Shown here: piece by piece, positions 2,052 to 56,601 of the stretch
How positions within the stretch are numbered: position 1 is the first letter of the stretch
Layout: each line of letters starts with the position of its first letter
Origin: Candidatus Omnitrophota bacterium
GTDB taxonomy: Bacteria; Omnitrophota; Gorgyraeia; Gygaellales; JBFMHM01
Assembly (NCBI GenBank): GCA_040753015.1
Contig: JBFMHM010000001.1
Location: 8,193-72,192 of the forward strand
DNA: 64,000 nucleotides
Direction of reading: 5' to 3'
Program-made: the position numbers and the translations under genes
Notes under the pieces: generated by a model
The model's input: the letters and a program-made list of their open reading frames with translations, nothing else
Told to the model about the DNA's origin: nothing
The model's database searches: none

Positions 2052-2077
2052 TTAATTGAGCATAAAAGGAAAATACT

Positions 2078-2428: not shown

Positions 2429-2439
2429 AGAGGTGCAAG

Positions 2440-2784
2440 ATGGATATAGAAAAAGTGGATGAACATCTTAAAGAAAAATTAAAGAATCCTTACTTTAAAG
2501 AACTTCATGAGCTCGAAGAACAAAAACTAGGTATTGTTAAAAGAATAATTAGCTACAGGATTAAAAACAATCTTAGCCAAAAGGAATTGGCAAGAAAAAT
2601 AAAGATTACTCAGCAACACATTTCTAAGATCGAAAATGGAGATTTTAGTAGTATAATTACTCTTGAAAAAGTTCTATTAGCCGTTGGTTACACGGTTAGG
2701 ATTAGCGCTGTACCTCTTAACCAAAAAATACGAGACAATATTGAGCACATAATAGCTCAAAATAAATTACAATTCGCTTCATAA
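2440..2784 (+). CDS. higA: HTH XRE-family antitoxin (HigA-like)
   Basis: The helix-turn-helix LSQKELARKIKITQQHISKIENGDF is XRE-type. The 114-aa gene lies downstream of and tightly linked to the RelE-like toxin gene, with 11 nt between them. Confidence 0.7.
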   Translation: MDIEKVDEHLKEKLKNPYFKELHELEEQKLGIVKRIISYRIKNNLSQKELARKIKITQQHISKIENGDFSSIITLEKVLLAVGYTVRISAVPLNQKIRDNIEHIIAQNKLQFAS

Positions 2785-2789
2785 TATAA

Positions 2790-2812
2790 TTGTCGTATCA
2801 GCGATACGACAA
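2790..2812 (+). terminator. perfect 10-bp-arm hairpin TTGTCGTATC-AGC-GATACGACAA followed by TTTAAAAA; possible terminator or operator
   Basis: An inverted repeat is seen directly in the sequence after the higA stop. The T-tract is weak, so the function is uncertain. Confidence 0.35.
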
Positions 2813-2872
2813 TTTAAAAACACAAATAGCATCGTATAACTAGCAAAAGATATTTTAACAAGAGGGGGCTGA

Positions 2873-9921: not shown

Positions 9922-11259
9922 ATGGGTTTATCTGGATTAGATATATATAAACTTCTGCCAAAAACTAATTGCCGTGAATGTGGGTATTCAAACTGTCTCG
10001 CATTTGCCCTTGCTATCGCAAAAAAGGCGGTTTCCATAGATAAATGCCCCCATATATCAAAAGATGTAAAACAAAAATTACTGGAAGCCGTTCTTCCGGC
10101 AATGAAACTTATCGAGATAGGCATAAATGATAGAAAAAGTTTAACTGGGCAAGAAACGGTATTATTCCGCCATGAAGAAAAATTTCATAATCCCTGCCTT
10201 TTAGGTTACATATTAGATGATAATCTGAATGAAGAAGAATTCGACAAAAGACTGCTAGATATTTCAAACATTAAATTTGAAAGAGTAGGGGAAATAATAA
10301 AACTTGATTTAATAGCACTAAGAAATAAAAGCAATAACTCTGAAAAGTTTAAAAACTGTATTAAAAAAATAGCTTTGCTAAGCAATTTGAACATTGTAAT
10401 AATTACTGATAATTTACAAATTCTAAAAGAATCGATAGATATTATTAAATCAAATAATGCTTTAATTTATTTTACTAAAGATCTGACTGATACCAATGTG
10501 TTAGATCTACTTAAAAAATACAATCCCCCTATAGTTATAAGCGCCGACAGATTAGAGGAATTCGATAATATCATCCCAAAGTTAATTGATATTGGATTAA
10601 ACAATCTCGTTTTAGAGACTAAATCAAAAAATGTACAAAACAAACTCTGGGATTTAACACAAATAAGAAGATTAGCATTAAAGAAAAAAAATAGGGCTTT
10701 CGGATTTCCACAACTTGTCACAGTCAAAAAAGACGATGATTTTAGTGGTGTAATGCAAGCAGCGACTTTTATAACAAAATATGCGAATGTAATCTTATTA
10801 GAAAATTTTGGGCTTGAAGATATTTTTGCCTTATTAACACTACGTCAAAATATATATTCCGACCCTCAAAAACCTCTGCAGGTTGAACCAAAGGCTTATG
10901 CTATAGGACAGGTTACAGATAATTCTCCCGTACTCGTAACTACTAATTTCTCTTTAACCTATTACACTGTCCTTTCAGAAGTAGAAGCCAGCAAAATCCC
11001 ATCATACATAGCAGCAATCAATACTGAAGGAATGTCGGTGCTGACTGCCTGGGCAGCGGAAAAATTTACACCAGAATCAATCACAAAAGGAATTAATGAT
11101 TACGCTATAAAAGATAAAGTCAAGCATAATAAAATAATTATACCCGGATATGTCGCAAACATGAATAAACATTTAGAAGATTTAAGTAAAACAAAAGTAA
11201 TCGTTGGGCCAAAAGAAGCGTCGGGTATCCCCAGTTTACTGAAGAGTTTATATAAATAA
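9922..11259 (+). CDS. acsC: corrinoid iron-sulfur protein large subunit (CO dehydrogenase/acetyl-CoA synthase gamma subunit)
   Basis: The N-terminus LDIYKLLPKTNCRECGYSNCLAFALAIAKKAVSIDKCPH is the AcsC/CdhE [4Fe-4S] motif. The 445-aa length and the following TIM-barrel region fit AcsC. Confidence 0.85.
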   Translation: MGLSGLDIYKLLPKTNCRECGYSNCLAFALAIAKKAVSIDKCPHISKDVKQKLLEAVLPAMKLIEIGINDRKSLTGQETVLFRHEEKFHNPCLLGYILDDNLNEEEFDKRLLDISNIKFERVGEIIKLDLIALRNKSNNSEKFKNCIKKIALLSNLNIVIITDNLQILKESIDIIKSNNALIYFTKDLTDTNVLDLLKKYNPPIVISADRLEEFDNIIPKLIDIGLNNLVLETKSKNVQNKLWDLTQIRRLALKKKNRAFGFPQLVTVKKDDDFSGVMQAATFITKYANVILLENFGLEDIFALLTLRQNIYSDPQKPLQVEPKAYAIGQVTDNSPVLVTTNFSLTYYTVLSEVEASKIPSYIAAINTEGMSVLTAWAAEKFTPESITKGINDYAIKDKVKHNKIIIPGYVANMNKHLEDLSKTKVIVGPKEASGIPSLLKSLYK

Positions 11260-13136
11260 TGATCGAGCGAATTAAAGTAACTTTCTTAGGATATAATAAA
11301 GAAATTTATATAGAAAAAGGCAAATCTATAATGAGTGCGGCTTTATCATGCGGAATTCATCTAAATTCTGTATGCGCAGGAGAAGGAATTTGTGGAAAAT
11401 GTAAAATAAAATTAAGAAGAGGAGAAGTTGATATACAAAATTCTGATGCTATAAGCACTCAAGATTTAAAATACGGCTTTTCCTTAGCCTGCCTAACTTA
11501 CCCAAGAACAAATGTAGTAGTAGAGATACCAAAAAGTTCTCGCATTGAGCCAGTGCTTAGGCAAGAAATTTACTCAAAAGCAAAAACAATAAAACAGGTT
11601 GATTTTAAATCACAAAAGTGCGATTTTAGTTATTTACCAGTTGTAAAAAAAATATATTTAGAACTACCTAAACCAAGCCTAATTGATAATATTAACGACC
11701 TCGACAGAGTATTAAGAGAACTCTCAAAGTATGTAGATATTAATAATATTAAAATTAGCTTAAACAATAGCCGCAATCTATCAAATGTATTGCGTAAAAG
11801 CGATTGGAAAATTACATTAACAATCGGCGAATATAACGAAACATATGAAATATTGAATATCGAACAAGCAGATACGTCAAGTTCAAATTTTGGTTTTGCA
11901 TTTGATATTGGCACAACTACTATTTCGGGAGAACTTATCGATTTAAAAACACAAAAGGTGCTGGGTGCAAAACTAACCTACAATAAACAAGCTAGTTTTG
12001 GTGCGGATGTAATTACAAGAATAGTCCATGCAAAGAATGCTCAGGGGCTTGAAAGATTACATAAAGCAGTAATTGAAGGGATTAATGAAATAATAGAAAA
12101 TTTAATTTCTGAATTTAATATAGATATAAATGATGTTACTTGCTTAACCTGTGCTGGAAATACAACAATGATACATTTACTTATGCGCATTGATCCTAGT
12201 TTTATTAGAAGAGAGCCATATATACCGGCTATAACATTTCTGTCGGCAATAAAAGCTCATGAAATTGGTATACAGATCAGCACGCACGGACTTTTATATA
12301 TTATTGCTGGCATATCAAGTTATCTTGGAGGAGATATCACAAGCGGCATACTTGCAAGCGGCATATACAAAGAACAGAATCCTTGTCTTTTAATCGATAT
12401 TGGAACTAACGGCGAAATTATATTAGGAAATAAAGAATTTTTAATTGGCTGTGCCGCATCTGCTGGGCCTGCATTTGAAGGATCTGGAGTTACATCAGGA
12501 ATGAAAGCAACCAGAGGAGCGATTGAAAAAGTTAAGATTGATAAAAATTTGAATATAACACTTCAAACAATTGATAACGTGAAACCAATTGGTATATGCG
12601 GCTCTGGATACATCAATCTTATAGCAGAAATGCTTAAGGCAAAAATATTGGATAAAAACGGAAAAATATCTATAGTAAAAAATAAACGGGTAAAAAAAAC
12701 AAAGGTGGGATTAGAATTTAAAATCGAAAAAAATATTGTAATTACCGAAGCAGATATAGATAATATTAAACGATCTAAAGCGGCTATTTATGCTGCAATT
12801 ATTACATTACTCGAACATATGCAATTAAATTTTGATTCTATAGATAAAATTTTTATTGCTGGAGGATTTGGTAATTATATCGATATCGAACAAGCGATAA
12901 CTATCGGACTTTTACCTGATATCGACAGAAATAAATTTATATTTATTGGCAACAGTTCTTTGAATGGCGCAAAACAAGCAATCCTATCAAACACAGCATT
13001 TAAAAAAACAAGAGAAATTGCAAAACAAGCAACTTATTTTGAATTATCAACGGATTCTAAGTATATGAATGAATATACCGCTGCTTTGTTTTTTCCGCAT
13101 ACGGATAAAAAACGCTTTCAAACTATAAATATATGA
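11259..13136 (+). CDS. reductive activator of corrinoid Fe-S protein (RACo; 2Fe-2S ferredoxin + ASKHA ATPase, DUF4445)
   Basis: An N-terminal plant-type ferredoxin domain (CGIHLNSVCAGEGICGKCK) is followed by an acetate/sugar kinase-like ATPase fold. At 625 aa it sits between acsC and acsD, as in Wood-Ljungdahl clusters. Confidence 0.8.
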   Translation: MIERIKVTFLGYNKEIYIEKGKSIMSAALSCGIHLNSVCAGEGICGKCKIKLRRGEVDIQNSDAISTQDLKYGFSLACLTYPRTNVVVEIPKSSRIEPVLRQEIYSKAKTIKQVDFKSQKCDFSYLPVVKKIYLELPKPSLIDNINDLDRVLRELSKYVDINNIKISLNNSRNLSNVLRKSDWKITLTIGEYNETYEILNIEQADTSSSNFGFAFDIGTTTISGELIDLKTQKVLGAKLTYNKQASFGADVITRIVHAKNAQGLERLHKAVIEGINEIIENLISEFNIDINDVTCLTCAGNTTMIHLLMRIDPSFIRREPYIPAITFLSAIKAHEIGIQISTHGLLYIIAGISSYLGGDITSGILASGIYKEQNPCLLIDIGTNGEIILGNKEFLIGCAASAGPAFEGSGVTSGMKATRGAIEKVKIDKNLNITLQTIDNVKPIGICGSGYINLIAEMLKAKILDKNGKISIVKNKRVKKTKVGLEFKIEKNIVITEADIDNIKRSKAAIYAAIITLLEHMQLNFDSIDKIFIAGGFGNYIDIEQAITIGLLPDIDRNKFIFIGNSSLNGAKQAILSNTAFKKTREIAKQATYFELSTDSKYMNEYTAALFFPHTDKKRFQTINI

Positions 13137-34297: not shown

Positions 34298-37200
34298 ATG
34301 ATTAAACGTATATTTATCTTATTATTGGTAGGGATTTTTTGTTTTAACCACTTATGTTATGGTTTTCAAAACATAAGTGCCTCGAAGCGCGTAACACTTT
34401 CGGGGCCAACATTATTAGGCATTGATTTAAATGGTAGAGACGCGCTGCAGTGCGTCTCTACGGGTATCCAATTCAATCTAAACATCCCCAAAGGCACTAT
34501 TCTTAATCTAGACCAACGTAACAACCTTAAAACCAACATAAACTACTTTCTAACAGCTCTAACCATACAAGACTCTGAATTCTGGGTTAACCTAAACCCA
34601 AACCAGCCTAACAGGCTTACAGGAACAAATATTGCCTACACAGACATGGGCAAGCATCTATTACTCCTAGACCTAAAGCTTAAGAAAGACACAACCTTTG
34701 CATTGTTTCCCGGATTATCACAAGGAGCCACAACATACTGGGAACGTGTGTTTGCTAAAGCTAAAGCTTTAGCAAAATCAAATATCAAATATCAAAAATC
34801 AAATATACAAACTAAAAATCAAAAAGAAGAACAAAACCGAAGAACCGAAGAACTGACGAACAGTCGAACTGTCTCTATCCCCACAACCTTCCGTGTCTGG
34901 ATAGTTCCAGACAAGGCAGAAGTATACGAAGATGGCAAAGGTAGCTGTGTAATAACCAAATCAACATTGAAAGTGTTACTGGAAAGTGAGTATCTACAAC
35001 TCCCCCAGACCCCCTCTTTACCAAAGAGGGGGATAAAGGGGGAGTTTGATAACAACCAAGAGTTACAATCCTACTGTGAATCGCAGCTAAAAGAACTAAT
35101 ACTTCCTAACCTAACACATAAAGTAAACCATGATCCAAGCTACGAGCCACTAAGACAGATATACAATGCAATTATTCTTGCGAAGTGGTTTAAAGCCAAT
35201 GCTTTAAACAGCAAGAATAATAATTACCAATTACCAAATCCCAATGTCAAATCAATTACTAATGACCAATCAACCAATAAAAACCAATTCGAACAGATCA
35301 TTAATTCTAATAATTTAAAGGGGTTAATATCTAAGGATCCAATAACAAAAGAACAAATCTTTGCTGCCTACTTAGACTCAGTAAAACAAGGCGAATACCA
35401 TCTTACCAAGACTAACTACAATGAAGAGCTGAAGGCTAATATTAGGAGAAGTTATGTGAGCGGGGGAGCAGAGTTTACAGCTATAGCTTTAACAGTTGAC
35501 CCAACTGCGACAAGCAAGGCAGGTGCACTTGCAACAGATAATTTAGGAGCAGCAGTTACATTAACAGATAGTCAAAATCAATCAATAAATGTAGCTATAA
35601 AAACTGATTTTGATAGTTCTAACGCAATGGATGTAACTAGTCGAGTAGAGCCGCGATTAATCGCGTCTCTACAAGGTGATATTAAAATATTTGTTTGTCC
35701 ATCTTTAAGTCAATTTGATAACCAAGATAATTTTTCTCTCATTGCTCACGCAGGCAGGGGTGGAGTAAGGGTAGTAGATGGAGTTACCCATAAGCATACC
35801 TTGCGTCAAATATATCTATCCCCTAAACAATTTGAGCTTGTGCAAGGCTTAACCCAAGAAGCCAAAGAACAATTCTGGAAACATGAAATAGCACATCTTG
35901 AACATCCGGAGATGAGCGAAGAAGAGGTGCAAGCGGTTGCGCCGACGGATAAGGTAAGGGAAGAACTCATTGATCCTGATTTAAGAAAATTACTAGAAGC
36001 AGAAAAGGTTCTAAGCATAGAAGAAATAGATCTTTCCGAAGCCTACGTATATGCTGCTGATGACATTGCAGCTATTGCTCAAAACAAACCCGAGCTTGCC
36101 GATAAAGCTCTTGCCGTCTTAGAAAACATCCTAATAAAAACCATCCTAATCCTAAACAGAGAAGAATTAGATCTTTGCGAAGCCTACGTATATGCTGCTA
36201 ATGCCATTGCAGTTATTGCTCAAAACAAACCCGAGCTTATCCGTGAAAGTACCCTCGCTGTTTTAAAAAACATCTTAAACAGCGAAAAATTACATACTTC
36301 CGCCTACGTATATGCTGCTAATGCCATTGCAGCTTACTATGCAAAAGTAAATAAACCTATCCCAGCGGCAGCGCTAAAGGCCCTTCGTCTTCGCTACATA
36401 CGGTTTACCGATCGTGGCATTAGTTTTCATGATGCATCTGCCTTTGCCGAAGGTTTACTTAAAACAGCTTCTCCAGTAACTCTTAAGCCTTTACCCGAGG
36501 CTCTGCCCAAGAAAGAAGCTATAGATTTAAACAGTATCCCTAAACAAGATAACCTCGATGATTTGTTAAAAGATTATACTTTTGTCCGCGCTCAAGGAAG
36601 AACATTAATCTACAAACACAAAACAACAGGTAAATTCTTAGCCTTAAAGCTACTTAAAAAAGATGAAAGTCCAGCAGAACTTACTCATGAAAGCAATATG
36701 TTCGAATACTTTAACAAACATAGGCAAACATTGGGATTACAATCAATCTTTCCTATGTCTATGGTTCTTAACTCTGAGGGTGATAAAGTGTTAAGTGTGG
36801 TTAATTTGCCTCGAGATGCATTAGCTGATTTATCTGTTTCGGTTGAAAAAACAAAGCAATGCTATACAGTTATGGCATATACTACAACTAGCTTTGATTA
36901 CTTTACGTATCTTGATGATCCTGTTTTAAGTAAAGAAGAATTTAATCAAGCAACTGAAAAATCTGTACATGACTTATTTGCTCTCGCAAGTTACGGAATT
37001 ATTCATACTGCATTACTAAGTATTTTTCATACCGTAGAGCAGGATAAAGATAGGCAAGATGCGGGTAAGTATATTTGGATGACAAGTATAATTAGAAAGT
37101 TGACTACAGGTACAGGTAGACTAGAAAATTGGTTAATTGCTGCAAAATACCCTAATTTAAGGCGATCCGGCTTAGCTGATCTAGCTGACATAACTACTCT

Positions 37201-40200
37201 TGATGAATTAATAACTGATCCAAACCATCTTGGAAGCATTCATTTATCCGAAGCAAGAGAATTCTATAATAATCAAGAAGTATTAAAACGCGTATTTCTT
37301 GCAAATTACATAGGAGATTATCTATTGACCTTTGCTTTAATTACAGGTTCGCGATTACATAAACGCAATGAATTTAATTGGCAAGACCCAGAACAATTAG
37401 CCAAGTTTATGCAGGAATTATTTACTCAAGCATTTACTGTAAGTAGATCCCAAGAACAAGCCAATACTGTAGCTAAAGCAATTGACTGGGCTCGTCTTGC
37501 CAGACAAATGAGCTATTTTATGTCAGGGGCGTATGTAGCTGATTTTAGCCCAAAAAACCCACACAGAAATATTCCAGTTGGAATGTTTGAAGGCGAAGAA
37601 ATTTGCTCACTAGGTTCTTTTGACGAAAGTCTTTGGTCAGAAGTTTTTGGTTGGACAAGCCTTGTCCAAGATAATCCTGAAGATAATCCATCAGCGCTTG
37701 GCCCCTTTAACGGCCCTTTTCCATTAACTGAACTGGTTAAAGCATTGTATGTTTATGCAAGCTTACTTGCTACAGATACACAGACTACAGAAGAACAAAC
37801 TGCTGACACCACCATTGCCTCAACAGGCGAGAAGGGTGCAACGCGAGCTGAACACGAGGTATATCATAAACAAGGTAAATTTGAAGAAGTAATTACTGAT
37901 ATTGCTAAAAAAATTGAAGCAGAAAAAAGAGCTGATGGTAAATATGACTTACGCGCTAAAGTTCAAGAAAAAGGTGGTAGTATTCAAAAAATATTTAGCC
38001 AATTACGCATTGAAAATGATGGAATACTTGTAATTATTGACATTCGTTTTCATAGAGACCATGCCGGCAGAAACGAATTCGCGGTCTATGCCCGAAGTGA
38101 AGCTAAAGCTCAACACGAGCTAAGTGAATTACGCGACTGGCGAGATTTTGCAATTGAACAAAACATTGCCACTTTAGAAGATATACAACAAGGCTTACTT
38201 GGAACTAAACTAAGAGAATGGATGAATGATGGAGCCATTCAAGATGCAGAACGCGCCCATCGCAAAAGCTTAATTGAAGAAAAAAGCAAAGCCTTTCATA
38301 GAAAAGCACTTGAGATTGAGGTAAAATCTGATTTCGAAGATATCGAAGAGCCAGGTTACAAAGCTGTTACATTTATCCTTCCAGAAGCGACAGATGGCCA
38401 AGGTGATTTTATGGATTTACTTTCTACGGCAAGGGTATTTCAAAAATCAAATCCTACTAAAAAAGTAAGAATAGCGCTAGAAAGAGCCTCTGCTTATAAA
38501 AAACTTACTAAATTGTTTCCTGATTTTGATCCAGAAAAAATTAGCAATACAGTAGATGACATAGTAGTAATTAATGCTGAACAAGACCCAACTTTTATAG
38601 ATAGCCTTTTGTGTAATAAAGTAAGTATTATTCTTTTATCAGCAGATAAATCACCACCGGCTTTAGGTTTATCAGCAGTTAATATTTATCTGGAAGAACC
38701 TGGTGCTTCAAAAAGAATATATCTGCCGACTAATTTAAAACGCGGAGAAGTTTATAAAGATAAACAAGGGCGCTTACATATTGTTTATACCACTGGTTTT
38801 AGCACAGATTCTTTAGGTATGGTTATAGATAAAACTTTAAAACAAAAGATGCAAACTGCAGGTAACTCAAAGCAAAACCTATTACATTCTTTAGCTCAAG
38901 AAAAACCCGGCCTTCAATTACCAGCTGATACCATAGATTCCAAATGGGGATTTGTTTATTATAATAGTTCTCATGTTGAAGTTGTTTATAGTAGTTTTGG
39001 ATATTTTTCTTTTTTATATCAAGCGTTAAAAAATGGGAATATTGATAAAGGACAAAAAATTACAATATTTGACTTTAGCGATACCGTTGATTCCTGTGAT
39101 GGAGTGCGTAACTATGATGCTTATAAAGCTTTTACCCATATTTTTCCTGACGGCAAGATAATAGTGGGAGAAAAATTTCCTAATGTTAGAGTTGTTCATG
39201 TCTCTATGGCATCACATAATTTATTCTTGAGATTTATGTATATGGCAGAGCTGCCTATATTAGTTACAGGTACAAGAAGTTTAACAGAGGCAATCGAATT
39301 AGGCAAACCCTTTGTTTATGACTTAATGAATTGGAAAGTCGGCCTTGTGCAGGGCATGGTTGAGCAGGCAATTCGTCATATGCCTTTGGACCAAGCATTA
39401 ATAATCGCGGCTTGTTTAAATGGCTACCCTGCAATAGACGAACAAGAAAAATATACGAGATTACTTACATTATACAGACAATTAAGAACGCAAATCCCAC
39501 TTGTAAAGTCACCCGATGATATAGGTTTAGTGCTAAATCAATTTGCAGAAAATAATGGGTTAGATAGGAATAAATTTGGCTATGCATTTTGGGAACCTCT
39601 TAAAAGTGTTACCGGCCCCGAAATAACTGAAGAAGAATTAGTTGCATTAAAAATTTGTTGGATTATGCTAGGTGGTTTAAGAAGCATTCACTTAAAACAT
39701 AGTCCCAGGATTTTATATGATTCTATTTATCAAGAAGCATTTAGAGCTTTGACAGAAGTATTAGCAAATTTACCTGCGTTAGAGGATAATTTAGCGCAGC
39801 AAATAACTACATTAGTTGATGCTTATAACCAAGATGAGCAAGAGGCACTTAGAATTTTACGAACAAATGTTGATGCCGCTGTTGGCCAAAAAGAAGACGA
39901 AATTGACTTTATTATCTCAAGTGATGGAGGCGTAGCTGATAAAGATGTTTCGTTGCTTCCTCCCAAGTACGACGGAGAGCGATTTAGCCCGCAGACTATC
40001 TATGATTTTGGCGCAGGTTTATCTCCTCTAGAAAGACAGCACTTAAGGCGAAGCTTGGTTAGGTTAACGGCTCAACTAAGAAATAAGGATGTAGCCGTGC
40101 GAACTCAAGCAGTAACTGCTTTGATAAATCTTTTCGCCAATGAATTTGGGCTTTTTTCAAGAGGTATTCTTCAACAGGCATATCAGAATCAAGAACAATT

Positions 40201-43200
40201 AACTAATCTTTTTATACTTATGCGCCCTCTTTTAGAAAATACTCTCTTAAATGGAAGCGAAGCAGATGATGCCTATCAAAACTTAGCTAATCAACTTGCT
40301 AATCCAACCACTGGTTCTAGTCAAGAAACTATCCTAAGGACTGCCAATAACCTTGGTTGGAATTTAATCTTTATTAATGATAGGCCAATATTTGTTTTAA
40401 CTGATGAAGCGCATAATTACGCCACATCAACTGCTTCAGATGAGGTGCGCCTTGTTAATCTTTTGCCAGAAGGAATAGTTTTATCAAATGCACGTCCAGT
40501 ACAGGCAAGTGAGGTTACGCAACCTGATGTTAGCGCACCAGTAGTTTCGCAGCCAGTGCAATTACCACAGCCACAGCAGCCAACTACTGCTTTAGTTGTA
40601 CCTAACCAAGTACAAGGAGTACTTGTTAAACCGCGTACAATTGCCGGAGTAATTGCTAAGTTTAAGCCTATAAATTATCAACCAACACTAAACAGGCCGC
40701 TTATTCAAAGAATTGCAATACTTATTAACGAAGGCGATTATAACCAAGCAGCTACGCTTATCCAAAACAACCATACAAGAGCACAAGCGCAGGCACTCTT
40801 AACCGAGCTTTTAATTGCACACCCAGGTCCGCAAACATTCGAGTTACTAGCTTATTTAGATATAGGTCTAGCAACAGATAGTTTTATGCAGGCATTTGCT
40901 ACAACTAATGGCGAACTAAATTTAGAACGCATAAACAATATTATATTTATGCTCTCACTCATACAAAGAGACAGAATTTATCTTTGGCAAGCGCAGTCGG
41001 ATTTACGTTCCGCTGGAACGCTTAGGGAGAGCCTGCCATTTTCTTGTTTTATTCTTGCCAGAATGAGCCAAGAGAGGGAATATCAGCCATTTGTTGCAAG
41101 AATGAGAAGGCTTATTGATGATATTGTGCCACTTGGAACAGTTGCTGGGTTAAACCGCATAGAAACATTACTTAAAATTGTTAATGATTTAGCACCAGAA
41201 GCTCTAGTTGCACAAGAACAAACATATTCCTTCGCAAGAAGCATTGATGAAATTGATGAAATTGTTGCTAGCTTAAATAGCGCAGGAGATGATTTAAGCG
41301 CTGTTTCAGATTATTGTATTCTAGGTCGTTCGCCAACCAATGTACTTCGTGCGGTTAAAAAATATGCAGCAGCCAAGATTCTTCCCTGGCGAGCAGTTTT
41401 AGTTAGATTACTTTCAGCGCAATCACCAGAAGCTATTGCAACATTTATTGCTGTGCTTGACCAGCAGCAAACAGCTTGGTATCGAAATGATTTAGGCGAT
41501 GAATTAGAAAGAGTAGAGTTTTTCTCTACCTTGCTTGCAGAAATTGACAGAGAACTTGCCATAAACACTATAGACGTGCTTGTTACTGACCAAATACTTT
41601 ATCATCAAGACTCACGCAGATTAGCAGAGCGTATTCTTCTTGGCCCGGCAATTGAAGCAATAGATGCAATGGTTGCAATACACACTGAACTTTGCAAAAG
41701 AGATAGCCGTTATAATACAGAGTTTGAATTCCAGCTAACCGGTGTGTTACTTGCTGAAGACTTGACTAAAGGCCAAAGACAGCAAGCAGTTAAAAGATGT
41801 GCTCAAATCATCGAAACTACTGATGATAATTGGCATAAACTAAAAGCTGACTTCCGTGTACTTATTGCAATGCGTACCGACTCAGGTCAAGCCCGCAAAG
41901 ATGCAATCGCTGAGTTGGGGAGGTTAGGCACACCCGATGCTGTGGATGTGTTGCTTGGGCTACTAATACAAAGGAGCATACCTAGATATAGTTTACTAAA
42001 AGCATTGGCTAGGGGTTTAACTGTGGACCGAAAAACAGATGAGGATAAAATTTTTCAAGACGGTCTTAAAACAATTCATTCAGGTAGATATATTAAAGAA
42101 GCTATAAATGCGCTCTCTCAGTTAGCACGAACAGATTTGGATAGTTTTACAGCGCCTCAAGTATTTTTTATTAAATGGCTTGGTATGTATCTGAATTATC
42201 AGAATATAAATGGCGCTTATCTTCCAAATGATTCGGATAGGGTTGGCATTGTTAATATTTATATTATTCTAGGATTCCGCGGGCATAGTTATGCAGTATC
42301 AAAGTTTATTCAAGAGTGTGAGGGATATGATAAACTTCCTGATCTTCCACGAGATGATTTAAGGGGATGGTTTAATCCAGAAATCGAACAATGGGTTGTT
42401 TGGCGAAGAGATTTAATTGAAAAATTAGCTGATCCTAGATTAGATCAAGCTAATTGGCAATTTGAACAAAACCAATTTTTTCTTCTTCTAGAAGCAATTG
42501 GCGTGCCAAAAGAAGTTTCACGTAATATACGTCAACTATGTATTAGTGAAGATAAAAATGAAACAATAGCTGCAATCCAAGCCCTTGGCGAAAGTAAGCA
42601 TTCCGCTTCTGTTGAATTGCTCATCGATTGTTGTTTACCAATTGAACAACGTTCTATGTCTATTACTCACTTGAAATATAGAGATAAAGATGGCCGAAGA
42701 GGTCTTGACAACGATATTTGTCAAGCCGCGATTATAGCATTAGGTAAAATCGCTGACCCTCGCGCAGTTGAGCCTTTGATTGAATGTTTGAAGGATACGA
42801 ACAAATATGTTCGTCGCAACGCTGTCGAAGCTCTTGCTAAAATTGGCATGCCGGCATTGCCTGCATTAGAAGCAACTTTACGCCGTCCAGAGTATAATAA
42901 AGTTATTGCTGAAATACAAAGAATAATTGATCGTATTCGCGCTAAAAATCCTAGCATAACCGAGCATCAATTTTTCGCTCCGGTTTTATCGTCCGCTTTA
43001 AAACAAGAACTTATCGCTAAATTAAATGGCTCGGATTTATTAGATGCCCCTATTGCTGAACGGACAAAGCAAGTAATTAGAATATTAACTAGCGATAAAT
43101 ATTATGATGAGCAATCATTTAACTTGCTCATTGCCGCTTTAAATGAAATTAAAGCTGGAATACGCATTAACTTAGAAGGCCTGCATATTGCCGGTGATTA

Positions 43201-43405
43201 TAAAGAAATATTAGAGCTAGTGCTTAAGCCGCTTACCGATGACCTTGCCGCGGCTAATGCAAGCGATCCAAATACAACATTAGAAGGAATGGAAGTATTA
43301 GCCAAAGCACAATCTGTATCGTCTAAAGGGCAAGGCGCAAAAACCGCGCCTGTTACAACCGGCGGCATTGACCTATCGCAAATACAGATTACGATGATTG
43401 GATAA
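34298..43405 (+). CDS. giant secreted multidomain protein (3035 aa) with HEAT/PBS-lyase-type repeats
   Basis: An uninterrupted 9.1-kb ORF with an N-terminal signal peptide ([22 protein letters not shown]). HEAT_2/PBS-type repeats lie near aa 570-680 ([20 protein letters not shown] x3). More lie in the C-terminal part ([40 protein letters not shown]). A Pro/Gln-rich linker is present. I could not assign the central domains. Confidence 0.8.
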   Translation: [3035 protein letters not shown]

Positions 43406-43463
43406 AAATTATTATTTCTCTGCTAAATTAATATGCTATAATTATGATTATTCAAATTTAATC

Positions 43464-44300
43464 ATGCAAAACTTTTCGCCTAAAAAACTAATTTTATCAG
43501 CACTAAAAGAAGATGCTGCGTTTAACGATATAACTTCTAAAACATTTATCCCAAAAAACTCGAAATCAAAAGCTTATCTAATTAATAAAGAACCCTGCGT
43601 TTTATGCGGCATAAATATTTTTAGACAAACGTTCCAAATGCTCGACAAAAACATCAAATTTACCTCTAAATATAAAGATGGCGCAATCCTAAGTAACAAC
43701 ACAAAAGTTGCTTTCATCTCTGGAAATACGCAAAAAATACTTTCTGCTGAACGCGTCGCCTTAAATTTTTTAACTCACCTATCTGGCGTTGCAACTTTAA
43801 CTAAAAAATTTGTTGACGCCATAAAACCATACAAAACTAAAATTATGGATACACGAAAAACTTTACCCGGGTTGCGTACATTAGAAAAATACGCTGTCCG
43901 ATGTGGCGGCGGATTCAATCATCGCATCAGCCTAAAAGATCAAATGTTAATAAAAGATAACCACCTTGCAGCTATCAATAAAGATTGGCCGACAATCCAT
44001 AAAGTAATTAAAAAAGCTAGGAGTAAGAATATAATTACTGAACTCGAAGTAACAAATTTAAATGATTTTAAAAAAGCCTTAGAAATAAAACCAGATATCA
44101 TCATGCTTGATAATATGAATTTAAAAGATATAAAAACCGCTGTTAAGTTACGCAACTTAAATAATGTTGAACTTGAAGTATCGGGGAACATTAATTTAAA
44201 AAATATAAGAGAAGTCGCTAAAACAGGCGTTGATAGAATCTCCATAGGCGCGTTAACTCATTCAGCGCAAGCCCCTGACTTTTCACTAGAGGTAAATTAA
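43464..44300 (+). CDS. nadC: nicotinate-nucleotide pyrophosphorylase (quinolinate phosphoribosyltransferase)
   Basis: The sequence AERVALNFLTHLSGVAT...DTRKTLPGLR...IKDNH is the NadC signature. The ORF track starts at 43398 inside the giant gene, but an ATG at 43464 (MQNFSPKK) is the likelier start. Confidence 0.88.
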   Translation: MQNFSPKKLILSALKEDAAFNDITSKTFIPKNSKSKAYLINKEPCVLCGINIFRQTFQMLDKNIKFTSKYKDGAILSNNTKVAFISGNTQKILSAERVALNFLTHLSGVATLTKKFVDAIKPYKTKIMDTRKTLPGLRTLEKYAVRCGGGFNHRISLKDQMLIKDNHLAAINKDWPTIHKVIKKARSKNIITELEVTNLNDFKKALEIKPDIIMLDNMNLKDIKTAVKLRNLNNVELEVSGNINLKNIREVAKTGVDRISIGALTHSAQAPDFSLEVN

Positions 44301-44301: not shown

Positions 44302-44802
44302 ATGAAAAACATAAAAAATAATTTTATTATAGCGATATGTTTGTATTTGATTGATGTGTTTATACTGAACCAAGGAATAATTGCTATTTTTGTAATTTTT
44401 ATAATAATTTTTTTCCTTTTTCCAAGATTATTATTTACTATATTCAAAAAAGACAAAATGATAACTCAAGAAAGAGCAATTATTCTTCTTATATACATTT
44501 TAATGGTTATTGGTATAATCACTTCCAATAAACTAAATAATAAAATTGCGTTTATGCGTGCCAAAAAAATAATTCAGGCATGCGAAGAGTATAAATCAAA
44601 ATATCAAACATATCCAAACAAGCTATATGATCTTGTTCCAGAGTTTATAACTAAAATTCCTGTGGCTAAGCTTACGTTACAATTTAATAAATTCTACTAT
44701 ATTTCAAGTAATAATATGCATGCTATTTATTTCGTAAGCCGCCCGCCTTTTGGCAGGCCTATTTATAATCTAGAAAAAGGTTCTTGGGGATATCTAGACT
44801 AA
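44302..44802 (+). CDS. hypothetical small membrane protein
   Basis: Two or three transmembrane helices. No motifs. Confidence 0.4.
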   Translation: MKNIKNNFIIAICLYLIDVFILNQGIIAIFVIFIIIFFLFPRLLFTIFKKDKMITQERAIILLIYILMVIGIITSNKLNNKIAFMRAKKIIQACEEYKSKYQTYPNKLYDLVPEFITKIPVAKLTLQFNKFYYISSNNMHAIYFVSRPPFGRPIYNLEKGSWGYLD

Positions 44803-52174: not shown

Positions 52175-53680
52175 ATGATACGCCAAAGAAAAAAAAATAT
52201 AAAACTTACTAAACGTCAGGAACAAATTTTTAATTTTATTGTTAAAAACATAAAAAACTTCGGTTTCCCGCCTTCTATTTCAGAGTTTCAAAAAAAATTC
52301 TCTTTTAAATCACCTAATGCCGTTCAAAGCCATCTCAATAGCCTAGAAAAAAAAGGTTTTATTTCTCGACATCCGCATAAATCACGCGCTATAGAAATTT
52401 TAATTAATCAAAAAACGATGCTAAATAACTCTAATTCTACAATGGATATCCCCATTGTTGGCCGTGTTGCGGCCGGCGCGCCAATCATAGCCGAAGAAAA
52501 TATCGAAGGAACGCTCGCGGTCGATAAAACGCTTGTTAAAGATCCAAATAAAACTTTTGCTTTACAGGTAAGAGGCGACAGTATGATTAATGCAGGAATC
52601 CTGAATAATGACTTTGTAGTTGTCCAACAACAATCTACTGCGGATGAGGGTGAAATCGTCGTTGCTCTTATTGGCGAAGAAGCCACAGTAAAAAGATTTT
52701 ATAAAGAAAAAGATTGCATTAAATTAATTGCCGAAAATGAGAATTTTGCGCCAATAATAATAACGCCAAAAGATAATGATATTCAAATATTGGGAAAAGT
52801 AAAAGGTGTTATAAGGAAATTTAAAACAGATAACACCATCGCACCAATTAAACAAGCTGCACGCTCGCCTAACAAAGAAAAGAGCGATGTCTTTTTTAAA
52901 TCAGAAAACATAAAAATTTTGAATAATGATATACTTAACACTGAAAATATTTTACCATCTAGTGTTGATTTAATAATTACCTCTCCGCCATATAATCTTG
53001 ATATTAAATATGGTGCTCATGACGACAAACTGTCTTATGAAGAATACCTCAAATTTAGTAAAGAGTGGATGGCTAGATGTTTTGAGCTTGCCAAAGACGA
53101 TGGACGCTTTTGTTTAAATATCCCGCTTGATAAAAATAAGAACGGACAACAAAGCGTTTGCGCTGATATTACATCAATTGCAAAACATATAGGCTGGCAT
53201 TATCATTCTACGATAATTTGGAATGAAGGTAATATTTCTAGACGTACAGCATGGGGTTCATGGCTTAGCGCTTCAGCCCCCTATGTCATTGCGCCTGTTG
53301 AAGTAATTGTAGTTTTTTATAAAAAATTTTGGAAAAAACAAAAACCAGGAAAATCTGATATAACAAAAGAAGAATTTATGGAATGGACTAATGGTGTTTG
53401 GTCTTTTAACGGCGAAAGCAAAAAAAGAATAGGGCACCCTGCGCCATTCCCTGTGGAGCTGCCAAAAAGATGTATTAAACTCTTTAGCTATACTACTGAT
53501 ACCATCTTAGATCCATTTCTAGGGAGCGGATCAACTTTACTAGCTTGTATTAAAGAAAAAAGGGGCGGCATAGGCGTAGATATAGATAGACAATATTGTG
53601 ATTTAGCAAAAAGAAGGATAATGAATTATAATGCCCAGTGTAATTTTAACTTTAAGGAGACAGTATGTCAGGAGAAATAG
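52175..53680 (+). CDS. LexA repressor (wHTH + S24 autopeptidase) fused in-frame to a beta-class DNA methyltransferase (N4-cytosine/N6-adenine type)
   Basis: Residues 1-216 are a complete LexA. The DNA-binding domain is FPPSISEFQKKFSFKSPNAVQSHLNSLEKKGFI, the cleavage site is VAA-GAP, and the catalytic Ser and Lys are at GDSM and VKRF with E. coli-like spacing. Residues 260-501 are an MTase with motif IV (SPPY) preceding motif I (DPFLGSGST). There is no stop codon or separate start between the two parts. Confidence 0.8.
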   Translation: MIRQRKKNIKLTKRQEQIFNFIVKNIKNFGFPPSISEFQKKFSFKSPNAVQSHLNSLEKKGFISRHPHKSRAIEILINQKTMLNNSNSTMDIPIVGRVAAGAPIIAEENIEGTLAVDKTLVKDPNKTFALQVRGDSMINAGILNNDFVVVQQQSTADEGEIVVALIGEEATVKRFYKEKDCIKLIAENENFAPIIITPKDNDIQILGKVKGVIRKFKTDNTIAPIKQAARSPNKEKSDVFFKSENIKILNNDILNTENILPSSVDLIITSPPYNLDIKYGAHDDKLSYEEYLKFSKEWMARCFELAKDDGRFCLNIPLDKNKNGQQSVCADITSIAKHIGWHYHSTIIWNEGNISRRTAWGSWLSASAPYVIAPVEVIVVFYKKFWKKQKPGKSDITKEEFMEWTNGVWSFNGESKKRIGHPAPFPVELPKRCIKLFSYTTDTILDPFLGSGSTLLACIKEKRGGIGVDIDRQYCDLAKRRIMNYNAQCNFNFKETVCQEK

Positions 53681-54249
53681 TCCAATCCAATTTGATAATG
53701 GAATATTTTAAAAATCATCCCAACCAAGATATTAAACATCCTGAGATTGTTGATTGGGTAACAGCTGAATACAATAAAAGAACTGGTAAGGTTTTTCGAG
53801 ATCCAGATAGAGCTATTAGAAAGCTATCCCAAGAAGGACAATTAATAAAAATTAAAAAAGGTGTGTATAAGTATGACCCTTCTTTTATTAAAAATCGAAA
53901 ATTAAAAGATTTTACAACTGAACAAAAGAAAGAAATATTTAAACGAGATGCTTATAAATGCGTGGTTTGTGGCCGCGGAATTAATGACGGAGTAGAAATT
54001 CACGCTGATCATATAAAGCCAAGAGATTTAGGCGGTGAATCAAAAATAGAAAATGGTCAAACATTGTGTGCCCAGCATAACTTTCAAAAGAAAAATTATA
54101 AACAGACAGAAACAGGAAAGAAGATGTTTATAAGACTTTGTGAATTAGCAAAAAAATCTAAAGATAAAAAGTTGCAAAAATTTTGTGAAGAAGTATTAAC
54201 AGTCTATGAAAAAAATAATATTAACGGTCACATAAGATGGAATAAATAG
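53665..54249 (+). CDS. HNH endonuclease with N-terminal winged-helix-like domain (putative restriction endonuclease partner of the MTase)
   Basis: The HNH motif is CVVCGRGINDGVEIHADHIKPRDLGGESKIENGQTLCAQHN. The gene overlaps the upstream ORF by 16 nt with a GGAGA RBS, which indicates translational coupling. Confidence 0.7.
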   Translation: MSGEIVQSNLIMEYFKNHPNQDIKHPEIVDWVTAEYNKRTGKVFRDPDRAIRKLSQEGQLIKIKKGVYKYDPSFIKNRKLKDFTTEQKKEIFKRDAYKCVVCGRGINDGVEIHADHIKPRDLGGESKIENGQTLCAQHNFQKKNYKQTETGKKMFIRLCELAKKSKDKKLQKFCEEVLTVYEKNNINGHIRWNK

Positions 54250-54263
54250 AGGAATATAGACAT

Positions 54264-54896
54264 ATGGGTATTTTATATCTTGATTTGTTATTAATAATAA
54301 TCGGGATCTCTGCATTGTTGGGAGAAAATAAGATTGATAAAATTGGAACTTTTTTCTATTTAATGTTTATATTCGGTTTTTTCTTTACTCTCGGGGAAGC
54401 TTTAACAAAAATTGTTACAAGAAAAGACTATAATTTGTGGATGATATTTTTTATTTTTACCTTTTTTATAATTATAAATTTTAGGCAAGTTAAAAACTTT
54501 ACCACTTTCGTTGTTTGTAGTAAGATAATAACGTTAAATTACGATTTAGAAACAGAAGAATTTAAAAATAATAAGAAAATAAAAATAGCTACTCCCGAAG
54601 GCAGGTGTATTATTGCTAAAGAAAATGGACTGTATCGCATATATTTGCCTCGAAAGATTGTAGATGTAAATCTTTTTTATACTTCTTATGATGCTAACGG
54701 AATACACAAAGGTCGTATTTTATGGATTAAGGATGTGGATTTTACATTTAAAGATAGGTATATAGAATCATATCACGTTTTAAACGAAAGTGCTAATAAT
54801 GGAAAAGGAAGGCATCTAATAAAATATTACTATCGGTTGAATATTTTTGAGCTTTTAAAAAAATCCAGTAGTTTTTGGAGAAGCTATTTAGAATAA
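54264..54896 (+). CDS. hypothetical membrane protein (3 N-terminal TM helices + soluble C-terminal domain)
   Basis: Hydrophobicity only. No motifs. Confidence 0.4.
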   Translation: MGILYLDLLLIIIGISALLGENKIDKIGTFFYLMFIFGFFFTLGEALTKIVTRKDYNLWMIFFIFTFFIIINFRQVKNFTTFVVCSKIITLNYDLETEEFKNNKKIKIATPEGRCIIAKENGLYRIYLPRKIVDVNLFYTSYDANGIHKGRILWIKDVDFTFKDRYIESYHVLNESANNGKGRHLIKYYYRLNIFELLKKSSSFWRSYLE

Positions 54897-54948
54897 TCCC
54901 AGACCATAATCAGAATTCCGAAGACACAGCAGTTAATTAACCCTTAAA

Positions 54949-56088
54949 ATGAAAAAGCTCTTGGCAATTTTTGCACTAATCCTCACGATAACAACAAACT
55001 CTTTCGCCTCGGAAATTTGGTATCAGGCTCGGGTAAGAGATGCGAGTGATCGGAGTTATGAGAAAGAAGTTATTGCGCTACTTGATTCTGCCAAACAATC
55101 AATTACAATCTCAATGTACGTCATCAAACCGCATGAAATAAAAAACCACCCAGTAAATCTTCTGCTTAATGATCTTTTAGAGGCTAGAGGCCGAGGGGTT
55201 GAAGTAAATATCTACCTAAATGCCAGGTTTAACAATGTCTTAGAATCTGGCGATATTACGCGTAATCCTATTTATGCCACACTAGAACAAAAAGGCGCAA
55301 AAATATACTTTGTATCAAGCGCAACCATGCTTCACGATAAACTTATTATCATTGACGAGCGCTACATCGTAGAAGGTAGCACAAATTGGAGCGTTGCCGC
55401 TCTAAAAAATAATCTTGAATCAGCAACAATCATAGATTCACCTGAGCTTGCCAAAAGAAAATTATCTAGAATCAGCCAATTACCGTTAGAAGGCCAAGCA
55501 AAGCCAACCACCAAAGAAGAAAAGCCAATAGTTGCCAATTTACCACCAGAAATAGAAATAAAAGCTTGCCTTATTACCGATAAAAACTTTTTCTCTAAAA
55601 TGGTGAGAAACCGAGACGAACATACAATTGATCTATATCTTTATTTAATTGGGTTATCACAAGCCTATAACTCAAATGAATTCTTTATAGATCTTGAAAC
55701 AATACCACTCGATATTTCGCTTCCTAAAAAATGGCCCGAAACTGCTAAACGCCGCCAAATCATAAAATTATTAAAGAAGCTTTCGAAAAACTATCATCTT
55801 ATACAAGTAGAATTTTATCCCGCTAAAGATAGCTGGGTAAAATTAATAAACTTACCTGGCGAATCATTTCTTATCCCCAATACTTATTTTACTGAAGTTT
55901 ATATTAATCGCTTTAGCGCAAAAGCTCAACTGCTCATCCTGACAGATTTTCTTTTAAAGAAAGAGGGAAAAAGTATTTATTCTACATCTCTAGCTGATCT
56001 TAGCCGACTCCTTAACCTTAACCCCAAGATAATCTCCAAGGCGTTGTCAGAAGTAAAAAACTACACAGAGAATCAAAGAATTGACTAA
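54949..56088 (+). CDS. secreted phospholipase-D-superfamily (single HKD motif, Nuc-like) protein with uncharacterised C-terminal domain
   Basis: A signal peptide MKKLLAIFALILTITTNSFA is followed by the HKD motif region LHDKLIIIDERYIVEGSTNWS. Confidence 0.65.
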   Translation: MKKLLAIFALILTITTNSFASEIWYQARVRDASDRSYEKEVIALLDSAKQSITISMYVIKPHEIKNHPVNLLLNDLLEARGRGVEVNIYLNARFNNVLESGDITRNPIYATLEQKGAKIYFVSSATMLHDKLIIIDERYIVEGSTNWSVAALKNNLESATIIDSPELAKRKLSRISQLPLEGQAKPTTKEEKPIVANLPPEIEIKACLITDKNFFSKMVRNRDEHTIDLYLYLIGLSQAYNSNEFFIDLETIPLDISLPKKWPETAKRRQIIKLLKKLSKNYHLIQVEFYPAKDSWVKLINLPGESFLIPNTYFTEVYINRFSAKAQLLILTDFLLKKEGKSIYSTSLADLSRLLNLNPKIISKALSEVKNYTENQRID

Positions 56089-56115
56089 AATTAAAAAAAG
56101 CTTATAATTAAACTA

Positions 56116-56601
56116 ATGTTAGATTATTTAGGCATATTTAAAGAATTAAACAAAAGAAAAATAAAGTATATTGTCGTAGGGGGAATGGCAATAAACCTAT
56201 ATGGCATCCCACGAATGACCTATGACTTAGATTTCATACTTTTACTCGAAAATAACAATATTAAAAAATTTATTACTTTAATGAAAAAATGGGGCTTTAA
56301 ACCAAAAGTGCCCGTAAATATAATGGATTTTTCAAATAAAGACAAAAGAAATGACTGGATAAAGAATAAAAATATGAAGGCCTTCAATCTAGTAAATCTG
56401 AATTGGGGAATTGCAGAAATTGACATAATTATCGATAGCCCAGTTAATTACGAAAAAGCTTATAAGAACATTAAATACATATCCTTACGGAATACACAGA
56501 TTCCAACTATAGGCATAGACGATCTTATCAAAATGAAGCATAAAACCGGAAGAAAACAAGATTTAGCCGATGTCAAAACTTTAATGAAATTGAAAAGATG
56601 A
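56116..56601 (+). CDS. minimal nucleotidyltransferase-fold protein (AbiEii/DUF-type NTase)
   Basis: The sequence YIVVGGMAINLYGIPRMTYDLDFIL has the GG...G..R.T.DLD nucleotidyltransferase signature. Confidence 0.45.
   Translation: MLDYLGIFKELNKRKIKYIVVGGMAINLYGIPRMTYDLDFILLLENNNIKKFITLMKKWGFKPKVPVNIMDFSNKDKRNDWIKNKNMKAFNLVNLNWGIAEIDIIIDSPVNYEKAYKNIKYISLRNTQIPTIGIDDLIKMKHKTGRKQDLADVKTLMKLKR

Follow-up and report, generated by a model that had tools for sequence, protein, structure and literature searches.

The locus described here raises the question of what a bacterial protein of 3,035 residues, bearing an export signal and titled in public records after its HEAT repeats, might do. It lies in a 64,000-nucleotide stretch of contig JBFMHM010000001.1 of a Candidatus Omnitrophota bacterium (hereafter the window), where a single gene at 34298..43405 on the + strand comprises 3035 codons plus stop. 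Between a Sec-type signal peptide and a conserved C-terminal tail, the protein was found to hold a leader module, a kinase-fold domain homologous to Legionella SidJ, a His-rich module, a glycosyltransferase domain of the GT-B fold closest to EarP, and a helical scaffold. The best description is that of an exported Omnitrophota multi-enzyme protein whose payload is new and whose family grammar had not been recognised before. With about even confidence, it is proposed to be an exported modular carrier of protein-modifying enzymes, acting in another cell or at the interface with one.

For the large exported multi-enzyme proteins of the Omnitrophota, published accounts list Pfam domains and speculate on cell-wall degradation. 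These accounts concern proteins of at least 10,000 residues, and the leader, tail, SidJ-like and EarP-like domains reported below are not mentioned in them (10.1101/2023.11.21.568195; 10.64898/2026.06.07.730766; PMC10066038).

SidJ-type kinase-fold domain

In the initial annotation, residues 740 to 1000 had been likened to an atypical kinase fold, and this was borne out by matches to SidJ in both the PDB and NCBIfam. A search against PDB chains matched residues 345 to 557 of Legionella SidJ with an E value of 1e-24 (3e-26 for the excised region) and 32% identity over 211 aligned residues. The NCBIfam models recovered were SidJ_poly_Glu (NF033873; E 4e-35, 121.4 bits) and "SidJ-related pseudokinase" (NF033874; E 2e-32, 112.8 bits), the latter over model positions 97 to 343 of 507. 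The domain was placed at residues ∼692 to 1157 (36371..37768, + strand), and the core that matches SidJ 345 to 557 at residues 761 to 976. A word-indexed homology search with the SidJ-like region gave one match.

The alignment showed that the residues of the SidJ kinase cleft, R352, K367, E381, N534, D542, and D545, are kept in the query as R768, K784, E798, N953, D961, and D964. Similarly, H492, R500, Y506, and R522 of SidJ are all conserved, as H911, R919, Y925, and R941. The roles of the kinase-cleft residues and of the migrated nucleotide pocket (H492/Y506) have been described for SidJ (PMC6858067), and R522 is the residue that positions the donor glutamate (10.1101/2021.04.13.439722). N733 of SidJ could not be mapped onto the query. 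The residues known from SidJ mutagenesis to matter, as mapped, are conserved also in two homologues, P0003 and P0202. By analogy with SidJ, the domain is predicted to be a protein glutamylase.

The likeness to SidJ and SdjA of Legionella pneumophila, which are calmodulin-dependent kinase-fold glutamylases, thus comprises a homologous kinase-like domain, its cleft and pocket, and the arginine for the donor glutamate. It also extends to the predicted presence of the domain in a protein that leaves the cytoplasm of its producer. SidJ, however, is exported via Dot/Icm, whereas the query has a Sec signal peptide, and the query's domain is embedded in a multidomain protein of 3,035 residues from an organism not known to meet eukaryotic hosts. 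The IQ motif, the SidE-binding domain, and a SidE-type partner are all missing from the query, a mono-ADP-ribosyltransferase/phosphodiesterase (mART/PDE) domain of the SidE type having been found neither in the protein nor in the 64-kb window.

Uncharacterised SidJ homologues have been noted in Elusimicrobia, Desulfovibrio, Waddlia, archaea, and viruses, with other substrates and other means of activation predicted for them (PMC6858067; 10.1101/2021.04.13.439722). Those outside Legionella all lack the IQ motif and the SidE-binding domain (10.1101/2021.04.13.439722), and the query agrees with them in this. It belongs to the same superfamily as these homologues and the NF033874 proteins, with the catalytic motifs kept and the IQ motif and SidE partner absent. 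Described SidJ homologues are stand-alone proteins of ∼500 residues, whereas in the query the domain is one payload module placed after a leader. No link between SidJ and the Omnitrophota was found in the searchable literature.

Export signal, leader module, and paralogous family

The Sec-type signal peptide occupies residues 1 to 22 (34298..34363, + strand), confirming an earlier call. By inspection, its n-h-c layout consists of MIKR, 12 hydrophobic residues, and NHLCYG followed by F, with C at −3 and G at −1. Cleavage before FQN is likely, giving a mature N terminus at about F23. Residues 1 to 24 form the sole hydrophobic segment of the protein, with no further transmembrane (TM) helices, and the N termini of the relatives are canonical Sec signal peptides with AxA-type sites and small residues at −3 and −1.

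Behind the signal peptide lies the leader module, at residues ∼35 to 392 (34400..35473, + strand), an alpha/beta module with the invariant motifs WVNLxP, WIVPD, LRQxY...W.K, and Y.SGG. A search of 5.8 billion proteins with the query returned 73 matches of 1,678 to 4,941 residues, nearly all of the named ones from Omnitrophota. When these were mapped by BLAST, the segment common to the matches and the query was the N-terminal ∼400 residues. A family census of 202 collected proteins was assembled, and a profile detected the leader module in 100 of them, always starting within the first 130 residues, never repeated and never internal. A leader-module scan of genome contigs gave no match.

At least five paralogues that share the leader and differ in payload were found in the same genome, those named being P0001, P0002, P0004, and P0204. 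P0002 is encoded on the same 417-kb contig as the query, and the locus tags of P0001 and P0004 begin with the same prefix. Leader identity to the query was 90% for P0204, 74% for P0001, 68% for P0002, and 35% for P0004, and the signal peptides are nearly identical. P0204 (AB1755_05745, partial) is a contig-end fragment of 256 residues, 90% identical to the first 256 residues of the query. The assembly is apparently broken inside the repeated leader, and the number of paralogues is probably underestimated.

The payloads are exchanged between these conserved ends. Residues 435 to 1904 of the query have no counterpart in P0002, and in P0001 they are replaced by ∼680 residues of unrelated sequence. 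Among the collected proteins, the leader was combined with the His-rich module in 24, with the GT-B domain in 1, and with the SidJ-like domain in 1, and the SidJ-like domain was joined to the His-rich module in 1. Other family members have as payloads protein kinases, GNATs, methyltransferases, HD domains, phosphoglucomutase, NadC, or glycolytic enzymes, with six or more glycolytic domains in one protein. The family architecture is an N-terminal leader and a C-terminal GGIDL tail with an exchangeable payload between them.

Some of these payloads bear on whether the bulk of the protein leaves the cytoplasm. Were the hydrophobic segment an uncleaved anchor, the protein would be a membrane-tethered enzyme held in the cytoplasm of its producer and modifying the producer's own proteins, and ATP, glutamate, and nucleotide sugars would be supplied to it directly. 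The strongest argument for this arrangement is that the family payloads include cytoplasmic NadC and glycolytic sets; in addition, the gene sits among housekeeping genes, and the authors of the giant-protein studies doubt some extracellular predictions (10.64898/2026.06.07.730766; 10.1101/2023.11.21.568195). On the other hand, the positively charged K3 and R4 stand before the hydrophobic segment, so that the positive-inside rule places the bulk outside. The leader always comes directly after the signal peptide, and the strongest counter-argument is that the relatives have canonical cleavable signal peptides. Tethering in the cytoplasm is regarded as improbable, and export of the protein is the preferred reading.

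The tail is a second hallmark of the family. The motif GG[IV][DN][LFIM] was present in the last 220 residues of 70 of the 73 relatives, versus 4 occurrences in ∼168,000 internal residues, and a PVIINIxP-type motif was also present in the tails of 43 relatives, with no internal occurrence. In the query, the 14-residue C-terminal tail (43361..43402, + strand) is a shortened form of the signature GGIDLN...PVIINIxP..LLLG. A known sorting signal was considered and rejected, no NCBIfam match being obtained for two family tails and no literature match for the motifs.

Further features of the family were noted in passing. Immediately behind the signal peptide, both the query (residues 39 to 48, 34412-34441) and P0001 have a GIDLN string resembling the one in the C-terminal tail. 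A subfamily comprising P0006, P0011, P0012, P0017, P0025, P0029, P0048, and P0071 has FRPLHLRYL after the signal peptide, and the same subfamily ends in "...CIADILR.EEE....T..LKEILVLLES..." after a GGID-like motif, the majority ending in PVIINIxP; the N-terminal and C-terminal subtypes thus co-vary. In P0066 (4,793 residues), the same leader precedes enolase, fructose-bisphosphate aldolase, GAPDH, triosephosphate isomerase, phosphoglycerate kinase, and PEP-utilising domains, according to precomputed Pfam matches. P0026 (1,713 residues; L001 33-5174) combines the leader and HEAT repeats with a complete internal NadC (QRPTase_N, QRPTase_C), after which follows a canonical tail, GGIDFN...PVILNIIP. 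NadC, a core enzyme of NAD biosynthesis, therefore lies inside a signal-peptide-bearing protein in P0026, and in the window nadC is a separate gene directly downstream of the giant gene.

His-rich module and EarP-like GT-B domain

For the central 750 residues, a word-indexed search gave no match. When 1.84 billion representatives were then searched exhaustively with HMMER, 128 relatives emerged, and with them the region was split into two units, a His-rich module and a GT-B domain. The His-rich module spans residues 1158 to 1349 (37769..38344, + strand), with the pattern (E/D)HExxH ... DHAGR ... QHELxEL..W. It is ∼190 residues long and occurs in one to three copies in 86 collected proteins, often directly after the leader module. 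Neither Pfam nor the PDB gave a match, and assignment to a known family failed. The module's conserved His and Glu residues are suggestive of metal binding, and a role in self-processing may be conjectured. The module was also seen without the leader in P0075, P0084, P0174, P0078, and P0186, which have another N terminus in common (P(F/L)(R/K)V(I/M)…ITLWSFLFN…AWAARTPLEL), an indication that there is at least one further kind of leader.

The second unit was placed at residues ∼1355 to 1690, with a helical extension to ∼1850 (38360..39847, + strand), and has a GT-B fold closest to that of EarP. A central string quoted in the initial annotation, which had left the domains there unassigned, proved to carry an enzymatic motif, since residues 1657 to 1679 (TGTRS...) correspond to the nucleotide-sugar-side motif of an EarP-like GT-B glycosyltransferase. 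The likeness to EarP, the EF-P arginine rhamnosyltransferase (GT104, PF10093), consists of the GT-B fold and an acidic pair. D1366 and D1370 (DGQGD) correspond to EarP D13 and D17, and within the family the D17 column is Asp in 23/23 and the D13 column in 10/23.

The differences from EarP are the loss of R271 and E273, an extra helical extension of ∼160 residues, and the lack of a Pfam match. The EarP model (PF10093, gathering score 25 bits) did not match the query and scored 22.9 bits with the relative P0085. The GT-B part also occurs as stand-alone proteins of 430 to 590 residues, annotated as hypothetical, in a Deltaproteobacteria metagenome-assembled genome (MAG) and a Woesearchaeota archaeon. 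An efp/rml context was considered for this EarP-like family and rejected, neither efp nor rml genes being found beside the stand-alone relatives. The context gives no support to EF-P Arg32 as the acceptor or dTDP-rhamnose as the donor for the query domain.

C-terminal scaffold

Residues ∼1897 to 3008 (39986..43321, + strand) form a C-terminal scaffold common to P0001 (42% identity) and P0002 (34%). From its sequence, it is a helical region of ∼1,100 residues with few true HEAT units. Two canonical PBS-type HEAT units were found at residues 2806 to 2867 (42713..42898, + strand), and a profile derived from the two best HEAT units of the protein itself detected one further, weaker unit at residues 2533 to 2552 (41894-41953, + strand). 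A Pro/Gln-rich linker was located by string match at residues 2085 to 2097 (40550-40588, + strand).

HEAT/PBS repeats had been reported at both ends of the protein. The C-terminal set passed the Pfam thresholds, HEAT_2 (PF13646) scoring 65.4 bits versus 27.7 and HEAT_PBS (PF03130) 41.1 versus 20.9, at residues ∼2530 to 2870 only; the proposed N-terminal set at residues 570 to 680 gave no HEAT match. The significant Pfam matches of the whole protein were to HEAT-type models only, all in the last ∼500 residues. The protein is nonetheless not composed of solenoid repeats only, as the kinase-fold and GT-B enzymatic domains were identified.

In a rival reading, the protein is an Archaeovorin-type surface or periplasmic scaffold, or "coat." It would stay on the envelope of its producer and use its HEAT and helical regions to organise complexes or bind prey surfaces, with the enzyme-like domains acting on the envelope or on the cell's own exported giants, or serving in binding only. 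HEAT domains are the most frequent in the Omnitrophota giants, where they are predicted to be extracellular and were proposed to act in assembly or surface binding (10.1101/2023.11.21.568195), and 94% of long Omnitrophota proteins have a signal peptide or TM helices (10.64898/2026.06.07.730766). The GT-B domain without two EarP catalytic residues would suit such a coat, and the conserved tail could anchor it. However, the SidJ-type domain keeps its ATP, metal, adenylate, and donor-glutamate residues, which is hard to reconcile with a pure binding module, and ATP and nucleotide sugars are expected only in the cytoplasm. Unlike most described giants, the protein has no TM helices beyond the signal peptide, and at 3,035 residues it is far below Archaeovorin sizes. 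A coat, with either role for its enzyme-like domains, is possible but doubtful, and the reading as an exported carrier of enzymes is preferred.

Integrity of the reading frame

The gene at 34298..43405 is a real, uninterrupted open reading frame (ORF). The single 9.1-kb frame described in the initial annotation was recovered in full on the + strand, and the strings quoted there were all found, at residues 526 to 538, 778 to 965, 1657 to 1679, and 2085 to 2097. An identical 3,035-residue protein has been called publicly as NCBI MEW5757890.1, [quoted passage not shown] from a 417,111-bp contig, and the same public record contains the ValS that flanks the giant gene and the nearby GroEL of the window.

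The protein is known from a MAG, in which several genes, or parts of different paralogues, might have been fused into one ORF by assembly or annotation. The leader modules of the paralogues are 68 to 90% identical and one paralogue stops at a contig edge, which speaks for such an artefact. Nevertheless, no stop interrupts the frame over 9.1 kb, although the DNA is AT-rich and stops are frequent in it, and the giant gene is uniform in codon usage throughout its length. The same order of leader, payload, scaffold, and tail recurs in P0001 and P0002, and the C-terminal tail of P0001 is nearly identical to that of the query. An artefact is therefore considered scarcely credible.

Proposed function

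The proposal of an exported enzyme carrier starts from features seen in the sequences, namely, the ORF itself, the layout of the export signal, domains that could be identified, catalytic residues that are conserved, and a family that is modular and has paralogues. In the proposed scheme, the protein would be a Sec-exported member of an Omnitrophota-specific family, with a leader at the N terminus, a GGIDL tail at the C terminus, and the payload between. As the first part of that payload, the SidJ-type domain would use ATP to adenylate a target carboxylate and then attach free glutamate, by analogy with SidJ and with R941 in the place of the donor-glutamate arginine. The His-rich module would be the second part, and the EarP-like GT-B domain, with its incomplete EarP catalytic set, the third; the helical scaffold with its HEAT units would hold protein partners. 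What the scheme predicts is enzymatic activity, with glutamylation as its reaction, together with the target proteins and delivery to the inside of another cell. Because chemistry with ATP, glutamate, and nucleotide sugars needs cytoplasmic cofactors, the payload would most likely be active in another cell or at the interface with one.

Omnitrophota have been predicted to be host dependent or predatory (PMC10066038; 10.1101/2023.11.21.568195). A typical partner-interaction factor or effector had been suggested for the giant protein, and the giant Omnitrophota relatives and the predicted lifestyles make partner interaction plausible, while the term "effector" itself still goes beyond what was observed. 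An effector-like role, with the protein inactive in its producer, fits the logic of SidJ as an effector. A more specific version, in which the leader and tail form an undescribed export or delivery cassette that carries exchangeable, catalytically competent cytoplasm-type enzymes into or onto prey or host, is put forward tentatively and is rather unlikely as it stands. Its cargo would include a SidJ-type glutamylase, an EarP-like glycosyltransferase, NadC, and full sets of glycolytic enzymes. Only on this version would the query become the first protein glutamylase of the SidJ type with a part in an interaction between a bacterium and another prokaryote.

Several observations weigh against the proposal. 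With regard to the SidJ-type domain, the 121.4 bits obtained with NF033873 and the 112.8 bits with NF033874 are far below the respective cutoffs of 400 and 300. A relaxed pattern search found no calmodulin IQ motif in the whole protein, where the alignment to SidJ ends at SidJ residue 557, and the SidE-binding N-terminal domain with which SidJ engages its substrate is absent, the homology being to SidJ 345 to 557 only. Because the IQ motif and the substrate-binding domain are absent, the activation mechanism and the target in the query may not be those of SidJ.

For the GT-B domain, a profile alignment (not a structural superposition) places the EarP sequence RGEDS on TGTRS, so that R271 becomes T1657 and E273 becomes T1659. 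In the family, the equivalent of R271 is Thr in 21/23, and the equivalent of E273 is Asp in 16/23 and Thr in the query. In EarP, D13, D17, and E273 are invariant and essential, R271 is also invariant, and E273A/Q inactivates the enzyme (PMC5615199). The domain is thus EarP-like in fold but not an EarP, and it may be inactive or differently wired.

Delivery raises further difficulties. Sec by itself would take the protein no farther than the periplasm in a diderm, and no direct sign was seen of passage past the inner membrane or of arrival inside another cell. The leader module and tail matched nothing of known function, and their role in trafficking is a guess. The tails of the query and P0001 are, moreover, shortened forms without the second motif, PVIINIxP. 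The window was found to contain no secretion-system or pilus genes, and no mobile elements were found next to the gene; the neighbourhoods of three other family members contained unrelated housekeeping genes with no conserved shared neighbour. A dedicated transporter or island beside family members was accordingly rejected. Finally, in a MAG with near-identical leaders, one of which belongs to a paralogue breaking at a contig end, the join of leader and payload could conceivably be chimeric.

The Archaeovorins and other giants of this phylum are likewise large and exported and combine HEAT domains with cytoplasm-type enzymes such as glycosyltransferases, kinases, and those of sugar metabolism (10.1101/2023.11.21.568195; 10.64898/2026.06.07.730766). 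Some relatives of the His-rich module also carry C39 peptidase domains. The query is 10 to 50 times smaller, has no TM helices beyond the signal peptide, and is without pilZ, secretion, or solute-binding neighbours. Archaeovorins have ∼30,000 residues or more, many TM helices, and glycosyltransferase, methyltransferase, hydrolase, peptidase, NUDIX, and SecA-like/C39 domains, in contrast to the 3,035 residues, one hydrophobic segment, and HEAT as the only Pfam domain of the query (10.1101/2023.11.21.568195). As judged by sequence, the protein falls outside SidJ proper, EarP, and the Archaeovorins as they are defined.

A broader parallel is offered by the polymorphic toxins and MARTX proteins, which have conserved trafficking ends, exchangeable payloads, and several paralogues per genome, as does the query family. 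In this general comparison, no Rhs, CDI, MARTX-repeat, or processing-domain homology was detected in the query family, no immunity gene was evident, and the payloads include ordinary metabolic enzymes.

The protein is small enough to be expressed in pieces and has two predicted activities that can be assayed, a SidJ-type adenylation/glutamylation and an EarP-like glycosyltransferase. The family grammar of signal peptide, N-terminal leader, swappable payload, and GGIDL tail could be used to catalogue payloads and to test trafficking. For the SidJ field, a calmodulin-independent homologue in a prokaryotic setting would bear on activation and on other targets. If the domains are inactive, what is left is an improved annotation for a protein titled "HEAT repeat domain-containing protein."

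HExxH motifs and N-terminal repeats

Between the leader and the kinase-fold domain, a HAGR...HExxH stretch was found at residues 484 to 547 (35747..35938, + strand), with HExxH at residues 529 to 533. The string quoted earlier for this motif lies at residues 526 to 538 (nt 35873-35911). The stretch gave weak matches to two small uncharacterised families, the NCBIfam LIC13344 family (E 4e-5) and phrog_9200 (E 2e-5). It was also considered as a diverged copy of the His-rich module, which was rejected when a hidden Markov model showed no relation and hhalign gave a probability of 0.4%. The protein contains two HExxH motifs in all, at residues 529 and 1186, the probability of two or more being 0.0016 in shuffles. 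No metalloprotease family or structure was matched by either site in Pfam, NCBIfam, or the PDB. Hence, the HExxH noted in the N-terminal region is present, with weak matches to uncharacterised families only and no tie to a metalloprotease family.

Three tandem helical repeats of ∼45 residues follow at residues 575 to 706 (36020..36415, + strand) and lead into the kinase-fold unit. The first two are 67% identical, 21 standard deviations above shuffles, and residues 628 to 697 gave a weak match (E 0.16) to positions 5 to 78 of the NCBIfam SidJ-related model. The repeats matched no Pfam HEAT/Arm model, and a profile made from the protein's own two best HEAT units found nothing near the N terminus and did not recover them. 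HEAT repeats at residues 570 to 680 were thus rejected, the repeats there being real and helical but matched by neither kind of HEAT profile.

Composition and genomic context

The giant gene has valS directly upstream and nadC directly downstream. All window ORFs with a family match are on the + strand, and most are housekeeping genes, including gatB, ftsH, the carbon monoxide dehydrogenase/acetyl-CoA synthase (CODH/ACS) delta subunit, RACo, homoserine dehydrogenase, aspartate kinase, a LeuA-like synthase, uvrB, coaX, and groEL.

The gene had appeared richer in GC than its neighbours, and horizontal acquisition had been suggested. Its GC content of 0.379 versus 0.331 ± 0.037 for 45 other ORFs makes the first statement weakly true (z=1.3), with the excess at codon positions 1 and 2. 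GC at third codon positions (GC3), at 0.264 versus 0.251, is average (z=0.4). The relative synonymous codon usage (RSCU) of the gene follows that of the rest of the window with a correlation of r=0.925, and no other long ORF reached this value. Because GC3 is average and RSCU native, the GC excess is attributed to amino-acid composition rather than foreign origin. Horizontal transfer was rejected on the basis of GC3, RSCU, the housekeeping flanks, and the presence of at least five in-genome paralogues.

Taken together, the initial annotation could be read as pointing to a horizontally acquired HEAT effector with a zinc-metalloprotease (HExxH) head. The pair of HExxH motifs, the second of them in the conserved His/Glu-rich module, and the GC z score speak for it. 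Against these stand the lack of any metalloprotease match for either site, the few and exclusively C-terminal HEAT units, the native GC3 and codon usage, the paralogues, and the absence of mobile elements. This combination is thought highly improbable, and an exported carrier of protein-modifying enzymes is the reading retained.

Other features of the window

The mechanically called nadC ORF (43398-44300) has a TTG start at 43398 that overlaps the stop of the giant gene by 8 nt. The true start is probably downstream and the overlap not real, given that QRPTase_N begins at residue 44 and that an in-frame ATG (MQNFSPKK...) is found at 43464. Between nadC and uvrB lies a 166-residue ORF (44302-44802) with no family match and a hydrophobic N-terminal half, probably forming two or three TM helices. 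It was considered as a detached family tail and rejected as a small membrane protein without such a motif.

A defence-like cluster occupies 52175-56601. It includes a 501-residue protein in which a LexA DNA-binding domain and an S24 peptidase are fused to an N6/N4 DNA methylase, an unusual fusion. After it come an HNH endonuclease (53665-54249), an ORF with no assignment (54264-54896), a nuclease of the PLD-like kind (54949-56088), and a DUF6036 nucleotidyltransferase (56116-56601). The GC content of the cluster is 0.31 to 0.32. Five tRNA genes (Met, Thr, Tyr, Gly, and Pro) are all on the + strand, and the cumulative GC skew rises almost monotonically over 1-64000, consistent with a window that lies in a single replichore with extreme co-orientation. 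At 9922-13136, the delta subunit of CODH/acetyl-CoA synthase (CdhD) is encoded beside RACo, placing Wood-Ljungdahl pathway genes in this genome.

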